A stretch of 24,408 nt of DNA from a virus. Lineage: Duplodnaviria; Caudoviricetes. Location of the stretch: IMG/VR virus record IMGVR_UViG_3300027753_000082, positions 1 to 24,408 of that record. One strand, written 5' to 3'. Below, piece after piece: positions 14,647-22,658 of this stretch. The position numbers and the translations under genes were made by a program. The notes beneath the pieces are model-generated. The model searched no databases and was not told the DNA's origin. It saw only the letters and a list, made by a program, of their open reading frames with translations. How positions within the stretch are numbered: position 1 is the first letter of the stretch; every line of letters begins with the position of its first letter.

Positions 14647-15003
14647 TTATTTCTTTCCTGTAAAGAATTTAGATACGGAACGCATACCAATGCTGGCACT
14701 AACAATACCGCCCAATGAGTACTGATACCAAGTAGGCATAGCCTCTAATGCTGTAAATCCAGCCTGTACTATTTCGTTACCCCAGTCACCACAGAATGCA
14801 AGTATAAGGGGTATACTGAATAGTAAAGTAATCCACTCATCTTTCCAAGAGTTCTGAGTAGCTCGGATCGCCTCAATGTCCCAGTCGATCTCACCAGTAG
14901 CTTGTTTTACTTTAATCTCTGCATTAGCTTTTTGAATAGCTACCTTACCGTCAAGGTAAGTTGTAGCTAAGCCACCCACTGCATTTAACAATTGACCTAT
15001 CAT
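14647..15003 (-). CDS. Holin-like membrane protein (118 aa)
   Basis: Hydrophobic segments, SWKDEW motif, G.RS..K basic C-terminus; immediately upstream of the endolysin. Confidence 0.65.
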   Translation of the reverse strand: MIGQLLNAVGGLATTYLDGKVAIQKANAEIKVKQATGEIDWDIEAIRATQNSWKDEWITLLFSIPLILAFCGDWGNEIVQAGFTALEAMPTWYQYSLGGIVSASIGMRSVSKFFTGKK

Positions 15004-15320
15004 TTACTTGAAGCCTTTTTAGCTAAGTTCGTGACACCCATGAAAACTGACACTACACCTGCTACAGATACAAAGTATACTGATGCCATACTTCCAATAA
15101 TAGTCGAGGCATTATCTAATCCCATTAAACCTGTCAGAACTACTCCAGAAGGATACAACAGCATTCCCCACAGTGCAAACCAAGCCATCTTCCTAGTCTG
15201 ATCCCTGTGTGCGTCTTCGTCTTCTATGCGTCTACGCTTGTCATCTAAAGCTAACTTGTCCCACTCCGTCTGATCAATACAGCCGCTACCGTCCACATCA
15301 ACTTTATCAAACTCAGTCAT
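15000..15320 (-). CDS. Two-TM membrane protein with N-terminal EF-hand loop (106 aa)
   Basis: DVDGSGCIDQTE at residues 8-19, then two hydrophobic stretches; within the lysis cassette. Confidence 0.7.
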   Translation of the reverse strand: MTEFDKVDVDGSGCIDQTEWDKLALDDKRRRIEDEDAHRDQTRKMAWFALWGMLLYPSGVVLTGLMGLDNASTIIGSMASVYFVSVAGVVSVFMGVTNLAKKASSK

Positions 15321-15568
15321 CCGTACTCTCTTTTTCGTCTGGGGTCTAGTACGTCCTTACGTTCTAGCATACCTTCTAAGTACATAGCTCTCTCAACATG
15401 ATCGAGAGTGTACTTAGTTCCTGTGTCCTGGTAGATTTTTTCCCTTACGTAGAATACATCTGATCTCGGTATGTGCACTCTACGTAGTCTAGCTTCGTGT
15501 TTGTCTGCAAGAGCTAAGTAAAATTCCTCTAAGACAGAATCAGAAGCAAACATTTTTGGCTTTGACAT
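15317..15568 (-). CDS. Hypothetical protein (83 aa), first gene of the leftward arm
   Basis: ATGA overlap with the next gene; promoter immediately upstream. Confidence 0.7.
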   Translation of the reverse strand: MSKPKMFASDSVLEEFYLALADKHEARLRRVHIPRSDVFYVREKIYQDTGTKYTLDHVERAMYLEGMLERKDVLDPRRKREYG

Positions 15569-15573
15569 GAGTA

Positions 15574-15601
15574 GTTATACCTTTTAATCCTAGGGCGTCA
15601 A
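15574..15601 (-). promoter_or_regulatory. Promoter of the leftward (lysis/packaging) operon
   Basis: TTGACG-N16-TATAAC(TA). Confidence 0.7.
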
Positions 15602-15644
15602 CCCTAAAGTGGGACGACAAAGAAAAATTCGTACATCCAGATTG

Positions 15645-15763
15645 TACTTTAGTATATACTAAAGTATTACTTTAGTATTATATTTAAATAATATATTAAG
15701 TATTAATAATAAGGTATGTACTTAAGTAATACTTAAGTTATTACTCTAGTATATACTTAAGTA
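15645..15763. repeat. AT-rich array of TACTWWAGTA-like 10-mers (array 1)
   Basis: Copies start at 15645, 15657, 15668, 15719, 15730, 15742 and 15754. Confidence 0.85.
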
Positions 15764-15764
15764 T

Positions 15765-15794
15765 ATTATATAGTACTTTCTGCCCGGCTGTCAA
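15765..15794 (-). promoter_or_regulatory. Promoter reading into array 1
   Basis: TTGACA followed after 16-18 nt by TATATAAT. Confidence 0.6.
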
Positions 15795-16214
15795 GGGGTA
15801 GCTAAAAATAAATATTACTTTTATTGACTAATGGTAGGCCACAACTGTCGCATTCCTGGTAACACCCCCGATCTTACCCCAGGATAGCGTGAGAGCTACG
15901 GAGAGGCCGTTCTAATGCGGGTAAAGTACTCTTGTGAGGCGACATACTCTGGCTATACTAACGTCATTCTACGGGTCTTACAGGAGATGTAACATTATAA
16001 CACTACTTATTAGTATAATCAAGCTATAAAATAGGGTTTTAGTGCCAAGATGCCGCAGTTTATGGTGTTATCTGGAAGTAGTTAACAGATTGTAAAATAC
16101 CCCCCGCTGTCATTGGGAGTATACGCATACGGGGCGGGGGTGGGTGGCCCATACCGGGGTGATAATAGGGCAGCACTACTGACCTACTGCGGGAAACATC
16201 AAGTTTTCTACAGG

Positions 16215-16859
16215 TAAACCACTGATATCATTGGATAATTTATACAATAGAGTATTATATAGGCGGCATTGTTCTTGATTTGTTCTGAATTATTGCAAAT
16301 GATAATCGTTCGCAAGTTGGAAGTAGAACACCAGGTACCCCAATAGGTCAGTAATCTTGACCTATACCCCTGTTCTCTTTTTGTTCTCGTCCCCCAATCT
16401 TATGGCAACAATAAGGCACATCGCCACAATCCCACCACAATTCCGTGAACAAAACCGAAACATCCTCTTAGACCCCGATTTTAGCCCCTCTCATTGCCCA
16501 AATGGTTTTTCCGGTACCTTACCCCATAAAATCTGTTGTTCTCTTTCCACCCTATCTTTGTTCTCCCTTTGTTCTTTTCACCGGGTATATACTATATAAT
16601 AGATAATATGTTCTCGTTTTGTTCTCTCTTTCGTTTCAGTTACTTGCGAATCACTCGCAACAAACTACCTAAGCTGTTGAAAACATTAGACAATCAATAT
16701 TAATTGGAATTAATTGCATTTTTATTACCTAATGAAAACAACAGGTTACAAGCTAACCCACTGAAACTATTAGCTAATTTAATTTAATCTTTTATTGTCG
16801 AATAAAAACAAATACTTAGAAGGGTTTTACAAATATTATCTAATAAAATCAGCTATTTA
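16215..16859. repeat. Six dispersed 20-bp repeats CNAATRNWWWCARNNNNTTA (IHF-site-like)
   Basis: 16215-34(-), 16670-89(-), 16729-48(+), 16754-73(-), 16799-818(+), 16840-59(+). Confidence 0.75.
16271..16624. promoter_or_regulatory. Cluster of alphaproteobacterial LexA (SOS) boxes GTTC-N7-GTTC
   Basis: Perfect copies at 16271-85, 16372-86, 16560-74 and 16610-24. Confidence 0.7.
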
Positions 16860-17312
16860 CCGGGCCTTTACATATCATTCCGCTTGTGGTCTTGATTGGT
16901 CACAGGGTTTAGACGGCGCTTAGGTGACCAGATAGGCCCAAAACGAACGTTATTTGAAAATTGAATAGTAGCCTCAATCTGGCCCTAGGAATTGACAACT
17001 CCGATCATGGGAAAATCAGATTAGCAATGTCTTGATTGGGGTGGTAATAATATTGCGAGCGGGTTCGATATCGTCCCCGTAGGTGACAACTTTCAAACAA
17101 AAAGCGGCCTAATCAATTCAGATATAAACACCAAAACACATGCGCCCATCATATAGGTGGCAGTCTATGTGCAAGTTGGTGTGTCCTGCGAAAGCTACCC
17201 CTTAGATTTATCAAGGGGAATTGTATCTAGTGAGGGACTGCATGTGCCAACATGCAAAGCACATCGCATGGTGTGGTGTGTTTTGTTGATTGGCAATAGA
17301 GGAGTTTTAGCC

Positions 17313-17825
17313 ATGACTGATCATGTAAAAAATTGGGTATCGAATGCACGGGGTGCGGAATATGGTTTCTTTAAGGCGGTGCAATATGCGCTTGAGCAAT
17401 TCGGTGAGAAAAACAATCTACCGCTGTATGCTCTATATGCCTTTACGAATGGCAAGAAGTATGGCTCGTATAAAATTGAAGATGGGTATTCCCTCAAGCA
17501 ATTCTCTGCACCTCTCAAGCGTATCTTGTCTGTCGCATTGGATGATGTGAAGCTGACATTTAAAGACGGCAAACCCGGTGTGAAGGTGGGTGAGAATGGT
17601 GGCCTTAATCTTGAGGGCTTGGAGAAGGTTTCTATGCTCGCTGCGTCTAATTGCGGCCTGCGTTCAACCGCCTTTGACGATGCCTTTCCTAAGCCTTTGA
17701 AGCCTATCAAATTGTTTGATGCGACTGCATGGGCTGAACGCAATGTGAAAGCTCAACCTGACCAGTTGGAAGCGATGATTGCAGCACTACAGGCCCAGCG
17801 CACAGGTTTGAAAGTTGCAGCATAA
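17313..17825 (+). CDS. Early hypothetical protein (170 aa)
   Basis: Start revised to ATG 17313 with GAGGAG RBS; first credible gene of the rightward arm. Confidence 0.75.
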   Translation: MTDHVKNWVSNARGAEYGFFKAVQYALEQFGEKNNLPLYALYAFTNGKKYGSYKIEDGYSLKQFSAPLKRILSVALDDVKLTFKDGKPGVKVGENGGLNLEGLEKVSMLAASNCGLRSTAFDDAFPKPLKPIKLFDATAWAERNVKAQPDQLEAMIAALQAQRTGLKVAA

Positions 17826-21641: not shown

Positions 21642-21718
21642 CCATCCTTAGCTCAACTGGATAGAGCAACTGCCTTCTAAGCAGTAGGTTGCAGGTTCGA
21701 GTCCTGCAGGGTGGGCCA
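21642..21718 (+). tRNA. tRNA-Arg (anticodon TCT)
   Basis: Acceptor CCATCCT/AGGGTGG, D-arm GCTC..TGGATA GAGC, anticodon arm ACTGC-CTTCTAA-GCAGT, T-arm GCAGG-TTCGAGT-CCTGC, discriminator G, encoded CCA. Confidence 0.95.
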
Positions 21719-21729
21719 GGGAGTCTCTG

Positions 21730-21777
21730 ATGGATGATCCACATGATGACTGCACACATTGGATAGGAAAGATATGA
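21730..21777 (+). CDS. Putative 15-aa micro-ORF MDDPHDDCTHWIGKI
   Basis: GGGAG RBS 6 nt upstream; the stop overlaps the recombinase start (ATGA). Confidence 0.45.
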   Translation: MDDPHDDCTHWIGKI

Positions 21778-22658
21778 AATATAAAGATGCTGTAGATAAA
21801 TACTTTAAGACAAGACAATTTGCTTCACTCTCTACCTCATCTCAGAAAGGTTACGAAGCCTGCCTCACTTCCTTTGGTCGTATGTTTATTATGGGTAGAA
21901 GATTAAGTGGTACGAACATACAGAAGATTAATGTATTGCTATGCACTGAGATGTACGATACGTGGGAGTCAGTTACCTCCACATCAAATGCAAACCACAA
22001 CGCTAGAGTCTTCTCTGTCTTGATGAATTACTTAGTGTCGCTAGATGTACTACCAGCCAACCCGATGGCCAGAGTTAAGAAGAGAACAAGTATACCAAGG
22101 TCTGTCGTATGGACACACGAACAAGTGATAGACTTTCTTGATACTGCCTTCACTAAATTTGAGTGGAGGAATATAGGATTGATAGTCTTGATGTGCTATG
22201 AGTGGGGTCAACGTCCTATCGACATAAGAAATCTGAAGTGGGATGATGTGGATTTAGATAGCCGTATAGTTAAGATAACACAGAGCAAACGTGGTGCAAC
22301 AGTGGAGTTACCTGTACCAGATAATATCTTTAACATGCTATCTGTTCAGATAAAAGACTGGGACTTCCAACCCTACGTAGTACCCTACCACAGAGCTTCA
22401 GATGGTTCTTATAGACCACTAACGGTTCACAACATGACCTCACTACTGTCCGAGGTTAAGGCCACTGCAGGGCTACCTGATGATCTAAGGGTGGGTGATC
22501 TACGGAAGACTGCGATAGTACAGATGATTGAAAGTGGTGTGGATCACCTTGCAATTCAATCTGTGTCGGGTCATAAGAGTGTGTCGAGTCTTAATCCGTA
22601 CAACAAATTTAGTTTAAAGACAGCTAAGCTGGCACTGGGCCAGAGGCAGAGAGAATAA
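21774..22658 (+). CDS. Tyrosine recombinase / integrase family protein (294 aa)
   Basis: Start revised to ATG 21774. SAM-like N-domain ending ANPM; GQRPIDIRNLKWDDVD (R), QSKRG (K), GDLRKT (R), SGH (H), LNPY (Y). Confidence 0.9.
   Translation: MKYKDAVDKYFKTRQFASLSTSSQKGYEACLTSFGRMFIMGRRLSGTNIQKINVLLCTEMYDTWESVTSTSNANHNARVFSVLMNYLVSLDVLPANPMARVKKRTSIPRSVVWTHEQVIDFLDTAFTKFEWRNIGLIVLMCYEWGQRPIDIRNLKWDDVDLDSRIVKITQSKRGATVELPVPDNIFNMLSVQIKDWDFQPYVVPYHRASDGSYRPLTVHNMTSLLSEVKATAGLPDDLRVGDLRKTAIVQMIESGVDHLAIQSVSGHKSVSSLNPYNKFSLKTAKLALGQRQRE

Follow-up and report, generated by a model that had tools for sequence, protein, structure and literature searches.

Several phages are known to be controlled by host regulators, among them LexA in GIL01 and others, CtrA in alphaproteobacterial phages, and Spo0A in phi29 (PMC9437464 and PMC4551915, in the parts available; phage use of LexA, CtrA, and Spo0A sites also appears in the accessible part of PMC6182141). 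We analyzed a locus in a stretch of 24,408 nucleotides from the viral record IMGVR_UViG_3300027753_000082, referred to as the window, that resembles these host-regulator-controlled phage promoters in that its non-coding DNA, upstream of early genes, carries exact motifs of host operators. Unlike the GIL01, CtrA, and Spo0A cases, in which one regulator acts at a defined promoter, the array described here contains sites for several regulators in free number and spacing, which lie mostly off clear promoters and are exchanged among close relatives. In a LexA-controlled prophage switch of the GIL01 type, boxes co-occur with lysogeny genes and overlap a defined lytic or antirepressor promoter; here, the boxes do not go along with lysogeny genes, and promoter scans gave weak candidates and no canonical promoter.

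Packaging sites offer a second comparison. IHF assists packaging at P1 pac (PMC10028697) and at lambda cosB (PMC9611059), and general background on pac sites is given in PMC9611059 and PMC5615212, all as far as the accessible sections go. Similar to these sites, the array side has an IHF-type site in fixed geometry by a conserved, GC-rich, probable pac element, and some roseophage relatives have TGATCA-containing repeats; unlike them, it has LexA and metal-repressor arrays, none of which are described in the available parts of those papers, and its cut is putative. The injection stop region of T5 is likewise a motif-dense non-coding stretch near early genes for which host-protein binding has been proposed, and has ordered DnaA boxes (10.1101/866236, in the portion available). 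The roseophage arrays, in contrast, have none of these boxes and vary in order and content. Finally, operators on multicopy DNA can titrate their repressors, as in the Fur titration assay and lac operator titration; the physical mechanism that we propose is the same, although those systems are laboratory constructs. A search of openly licensed papers and preprints returned no account of the roseophage array and none of a phage that titrates repressors in nature, and the words "non-coding", "repressor", and "terminal repeat" do not occur in PMC8528129. The present case adds a slot with exchangeable contents that occurs throughout the family, is linked to a conserved element, and is represented in cultured phages.

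The site array between the late and early genes

By its sequence, the window phage is an HMO-2011/CRP-9-like roseophage, a podovirus, with a TerL that matches those of CRP-13 and CRP-9 at 82% and that of HMO-2011 at approximately 71%. The late block (capsid, portal, terminase, and lysis genes) runs leftwards, up to 15568, and the early block (early genes, tRNA-Arg, integrase, and thyX) runs rightwards from 17313, which is the layout of the HMO-2011-related roseophages of the CRP-9/CRP-13 lineage. The host probably belongs to the Rhodobacteraceae, judging from these relatives and from the motifs. A bacterial genome scan for the host gave 3 uninformative metagenome-bin matches, plasmids searched with Mur box 1 yielded matches at chance level only, BLASTN with the array region matched no cultured phage, and the first early protein matched no known family. 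Elsewhere in the window, at 21642-22658, a tRNA-Arg(TCT) lies immediately 5' of the tyrosine integrase, a possible attachment site, and positions 15000-15320 (minus strand) encode a small membrane protein with an EF-hand-like loop at its start. On the late side of the gap, a promoter-like TTGACG-16-TATAAC (15565-15600, minus strand), conserved in relatives, stops a few bases short of the ATG (15568) that opens the last late gene, a position that suggests a leaderless mRNA of this gene. A perfect TTGACA-18-TATAAT promoter (15765-15794, minus strand) points towards the late genes; neither a LexA nor a Mur box lies nearby. Positions 15640-15780 hold very AT-rich short palindromic repeats of the TACTTAAGTA type, which expand and contract among relatives and have similar counterparts in CRP-9 as well as in CRP-13.

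The array occupies the late/early intergenic gap directly past a core element of approximately 85 bp (16076..16160). As the original prediction stated, LexA-, IHF-, and Fur/Mur-type boxes and an extra palindrome are interleaved here, with 15568 and 17313 as the nearest credible start codons, and their counts far exceed those of composition-preserving shuffles, the comparison that had been proposed as a check. Against 500 dinucleotide shuffles, positions 16161-16900 contain 4 LexA boxes (0.02 by shuffles), 2 Mur-type boxes at 16299 and 16644 (0.03), 2 copies of AGGTCAG-N5-CTGACCT (0.002, the pattern being derived from the same data) and, using a pattern that we take to describe IHF sites, 2 strict IHF-type sites at 16215 and 16847 (0.13), or 7 against 2.5 when 1 mismatch is allowed. 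Over the whole window, perfect matches to GTTC-N7-GTTC occur only at 16271, 16372, 16560, and 16610, that is, 4 where 0.58 are expected, and 0 of 100 shuffles reached 4. An origin of the array by chance was rejected because the shuffle counts lie far below the observed ones.

The GTTC-N7-GTTC direct repeat is the alphaproteobacterial LexA motif (PMC8565304, in the part available). The 4 perfect boxes lie on the plus strand at 16271..16285, 16372..16386, 16560..16574 (a tandem pair in some relatives), and 16610..16624, and a further box with 1 mismatch, perfect in L002, L003, L004, L005, and L009, lies on the minus strand at 16447..16461. The Mur-type boxes were found at 16299..16315, kept in close relatives, and at 16644..16660, where relatives vary but stay within the Mur pattern. 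By eye, both sites share 15 of 19 positions with individual predicted Rhodobacteraceae Mur boxes (PMC1698941 Table S4), and the Mur pattern was drawn up after both the phage sites and the Table S4 sites had been viewed. Predicted Mur sites number 1 to 3 per Rhodobacteraceae genome (PMC1698941 Table S4), where they precede sitABCD, a predicted Mn transporter, or irr, so that the 2 phage boxes rival the host regulon. Beyond them, an AT-rich tract (16670..16859) contains five IHF-type sites by the pattern used above, a strict one at 16847 and four with 1 mismatch. Judging from the sequence matches, LexA, Mur, and IHF of the host presumably bind these array sites. At 16420-16445, GCCACAAT occurs twice as a direct repeat with an 11-bp period that is kept in close relatives, and could be a response-regulator site.

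The boxes are maintained, as the original prediction had asked of relatives. Close relatives (64-86% identity) retain 4 to 6 LexA boxes, with tandem overlapped or inverted arrangements, and across six relatives the differing positions amounted to 5/192 in the LexA half-sites, 26/168 in the spacers, and 524/2411 in the surrounding DNA. This indicates that the half-sites are under selection and that the spacers drift. The DNA is also non-coding, as claimed: the two short ORFs inside the array have no PHROG match and are hit by frame-breaking indels in relatives. Rfam gave only 2 sub-threshold matches, both outside the array, and a coding region or a known RNA was thus discarded. In Vibrio phage CHOED, an 11-bp tandem repeat yields 3 false alpha-LexA boxes; such an artefact was dismissed for the window, since its boxes are dispersed and differ in their spacers.

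The extra palindrome, TAGGTCAG-N5-CTGACCTA, was located by pattern scan at 16166..16186 (1 mismatch) and at 16344..16364, and is possibly a bacterial operator without a name. Perfect copies were detected at 118 metagenome loci, 0 of them with the core element. Several of the 83 ORFs neighbouring the first 80 of these loci encode glutamine amidotransferases or aminotransferases, and no regulon emerged from this set; in L243, L290, L302, and other metagenome contigs, a perfect palindrome lies directly 5' of class I glutamine amidotransferase/aminotransferase genes. An Iron-Rhodo or IscR box was rejected by eye, as the halves are reversed relative to the CTGAC-N7-GTCAG type in Table S7 and in the available part of Table S2.

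A conserved core element next to an exchangeable slot

To the left, the array is bounded by the core, a conserved cis element upstream of the packaging genes. The core HMM, trained on 29 of 83 sequences, matched 73 of the 83, and the 10 without a match all have at most 446 bp upstream, too short to reach the core. Of a further 13 cultured phages, 10 have the element, HMO-2011 and HTVC103P among them. Approximately 70 bp past its TGGCCC, an IHF-type site (16215..16227, minus strand, by the pattern assumed above) keeps its position in most lineages, as judged by eye. Thus, of the several-regulator array that had been predicted, the boxes are real, but this IHF site belongs to a family-wide fixed module next to the probable pac element and not to the variable array. 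A TAYACAAT element (16239..16249, plus strand), located approximately 96 to 99 bp past TGGCCC and conserved by eye, may be either the pac cut position or a -10-like box.

The phage phiM6 provides the comparison for a packaging function. PhageTerm puts its pac cut in the equivalent gap (PMC6256558, in the part available), and phiM6 has a comparable GC-rich stretch with TGGCCC, 65 bp to the inside of the predicted cut, and TACAAT directly outside it. This likeness was established by eye and by gene order and is not significant by HMM or weight matrix: the core models left the phiM6 element undetected and ranked the RHph_N3_19 counterpart top in its genome at only 5.3 bits. From the phiM6 comparison, the core is likely the pac recognition element, with statistically weak homology, and is a candidate pac site for the whole family. 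If it is pac, packaging would proceed towards the late genes and the array would lie on the non-packaged side of the cut. No depth doubling indicative of a long terminal repeat over the array was seen in the contigs of 4 runs, a weak result since contig depth is flat. Of 56 loci, 19 have a contig end on the array side and 2 have one on the late side; the ends form no sharp peak, and hypervariability would account for them just as well as a terminus. In CHOED, Aeromonas phage 1233, and Slicky01 (L358, L359, and L360, respectively), a GC-rich stretch of the late/early gap that ends in TGTCCC or CGTCCC resembles the end of the core by eye and is not detected by the HMM. As regards a change of boxes with host class, three gammaproteobacterial relatives have no HMM-detectable core, and the motif matches in them come from a scan of 16 patterns in 7 gaps.

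When dyads were counted de novo in 39 non-redundant arrays, LexA and the Mur core emerged, together with a palindrome that we take to be Zur-like and several further palindromes without an assignment. Next, the sequences that extend 550 bp or more past the core, 102 in total, were pooled into 57 non-redundant arrays, and shorter ones were dropped. At least 1 of ten motif types occurs in 43 of the 57, in 31 combinations, and none in 14. Relative to shuffle means, we counted 39 LexA boxes in 17 arrays (0.85 by shuffling), 12 Mur boxes in 8 (1.0), 10 Zur-like palindromes in 9 (0.2), 26 copies of TGTGATCACA in 15 (0.05), 42 of GTTTAA-N2-TTAAAC in 15 (0.65), 54 of TATTCA-N6-TGAATA in 22 (6.1), 21 of the palindrome of the window in 13 (0.15), and 30 IHF sites in 24 (6.5). 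TGATTCG, presumably a GcrA-like GANTC site, was enriched as well (32 versus 3, with six copies in CRP-207). DnaA-like boxes, in contrast, were depleted (0 versus 13.1 expected), and CtrA sites numbered 0 versus 1.6 expected. In 18 arrays added after the motif patterns had been fixed, enrichment was replicated for LexA (11 versus 0.2), GTTTAA (27 versus 0.2), TGTGATCACA (9 versus 0), TATTCA (11 versus 1.6), and the palindrome (5 versus 0), but not for Mur (2, in 1 of the 18 arrays, versus 0.5); in these arrays, the Zur-like palindrome gave 2 matches and three rarer motifs gave 0.

In a tree with 50 TerS rows, repertoires differ among three phages whose TerS is identical, and motifs reappear across distant clades; recognition of the motifs by TerS was discarded on these identical proteins with different repertoires. 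Of 127 sites in 31 gaps, the 40% of the gap nearest the core holds 101 and the 40% nearest the first gene holds 6; the median distance from that gene is 812 bp. In L021, L061, and L062, the slot is filled approximately 250 to 350 bp after the core by tandem 14-bp repeats of the CATTATCTCTTATA type. The gaps of three pelagiphages and of HMO-2011 contain no LexA box. Altogether, these results show that the family trait is an exchangeable non-coding slot of operator-like sites tied to the conserved core; the mix of LexA and Mur that had been reported is present in the window and is specific to its clade.

Proposed titration of host repressors and its alternatives

We favour, with a probability of roughly 40%, the explanation that this non-coding slot by the likely pac element serves as a sink that needs no protein and titrates host repressors while the phage DNA is replicated. 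With one genome copy, the array sites would be occupied by host repressors, and after replication they would outnumber them. SOS genes would then be derepressed, including RecA, which would be useful for recombining a terminally redundant genome, and so would the sitABCD manganese uptake operon: in a host with 1 to 3 Mur sites, a replicating genome with 2 to 4 would titrate Mur, if Mur binds. In other lineages, the regulators titrated would be different ones. The slot may be located here simply because no other non-coding DNA from the pac module to the early promoter and leader is free of constraint. The free number, spacing, orientation, and identity of the sites, together with their distance from genes and their independence of the integrase, fit a sink better than a switch. 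The distance from the start codons, which the original prediction had treated as a telling sign, is less so than claimed because early leaders of these phages run to several hundred bases. A boxA-like motif at 16948..16967 (plus strand, outside 16200..16900), identified by a consensus that we assume to be correct, suggests an antiterminated early leader downstream of the array; such motifs were found on the plus strand in 10 of 33 lineages and on the minus strand in 1. The leader region itself (16900-17320), which has a boxA-like start, folds better than shuffles (z -2.4) and is partly conserved in relatives.

Several findings point away from titration, and some of them suit a reading that we hold tentatively, namely that host LexA and Mur are borrowed as repressors that, placed at weak rightward promoters of the array or downstream of them, damp early transcription. 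DNA damage or manganese shortage might then lead to lytic growth or prophage induction, which is an equally tentative proposal. Nearly all LexA boxes lie on the early side of the core (39, against 1 late-side box), a bias for which titration has no need, and Mur has 0 sites on the late side; TGTGATCACA and the Zur-like palindrome occur also there (11 and 5, respectively). The -10-like element TATACTATATAAT (16588..16600, plus strand) lies between LexA boxes 3 and 4 as part of a possible LexA-controlled promoter without a clear -35. It is found beside LexA or LexA-like boxes in L009, L024, and L080, and between LexA boxes in the window, L024, and L080, but the spacing around it is not kept. The best promoter candidate of the window has its -35 inside LexA box 1 and its -10 inside Mur box 1. 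However, a simple scan called no sigma70-like promoter, TATACTATATAAT included, on the plus strand of 16000-17400, and although 22 of the 127 sites overlap the best-scoring promoter against 11 expected, by a rough scoring of our own that is partly circular, 105 are clear of it. Beside canonical promoters, phiM6 has a LexA box with 1 mismatch just after the promoter, and Slicky01 has a gamma-type SOS-like box that abuts the -35; both of these count against titration.

The window phage carries an integrase, and no repressor was recognised among the scanned proteins, which cover approximately 45% of the genome; both facts are compatible with borrowed repressors. An integrase was found in 9 of 9 near-complete viral records, with a LexA box in the gap of 4 of them; among the cultured integrase-bearing phages, 0 of 9 have a LexA box in the gap, and CRP-9 has two LexA boxes and no integrase match. 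The LexA boxes therefore do not track the integrase, and this independence, like the free exchange of regulator identity, argues against borrowed repressors. There is precedent for phage control by LexA, CtrA, and Spo0A (PMC9437464) and for LexA plus Fur at the colicin Ib promoter (PMC4675545), and CRP-3 is a demonstrated lysogen (PMC6918029), each according to the sections accessible. Titration is compatible with this reading because it would also release promoters inside the array. Further points against titration are that 14 of the 57 arrays have none of the ten motif types and that Mur was not replicated in the held-out set. In addition, LexA autoregulation would buffer the titration of LexA, and infection by itself can induce SOS. 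The three pelagiphages without a LexA box also count against it, as a SAR11 host carries lexA (PMC12753301, in the part available).

A role at the packaging end is unlikely. In such a role, host proteins bound past the pac cut would gate the assembly of terminase until they are outnumbered by genomes, or would shield the free non-packaged end; either way, any tight binder would suffice. Indifference to regulator identity fits such a role, and so do the crowding of sites near the core, with LexA box 1 located 28 bp from the candidate cut, the fixed geometry of the IHF site, as at P1 pac (PMC10028697, in the part available), and the phiM6 cut in the equivalent gap. The pac assignment, however, relies on one PhageTerm prediction in a distant phage whose element the core model misses, with the 5.3-bit match in RHph_N3_19, and the arrays without any of the ten types also speak against it. 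A further point against it is that RecBCD-type enzymes evict bound proteins. Very improbable is a DNA-entry platform like the T5 injection stop region, on which host proteins would catch the entering DNA and ratchet or pause it: packaging leftwards from pac would make the array enter early, just before the early genes, and the T5 region is likewise motif-dense and non-coding (10.1101/866236, in the portion available), but with headful packaging, the array would not keep a constant distance from the entering end, and an origin or T5-type platform was rejected by the lack, in 57 arrays, of the DnaA-like boxes that are the T5 hallmark.

Returning to titration of host repressors, CRP-9 with its 2 LexA boxes and CRP-13 with none grow on one host strain, FZCC0023, a contrast that makes the question of titration or transcription directly testable. 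Should the array gate early transcription, this would account for how members with an integrase may sense the state of the host. The motif vocabulary of the slot could, in addition, help to assign hosts. Several HMO-2011-related phages are in culture, and the group, an abundant one among marine phages, infects bacteria that abound in the ocean. We put forward, with some reserve, that these phages may carry auxiliary operators instead of auxiliary genes, that is, a swapped modular DNA cassette by the packaging site that would reprogram the host purely by titration; as a comparably speculative extension, the regulons concerned would be SOS, manganese and zinc uptake, and others, and the carriers a globally abundant marine phage family. 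If the array titrates, these phages would redirect host metabolism by non-coding DNA, which gene-based surveys miss.
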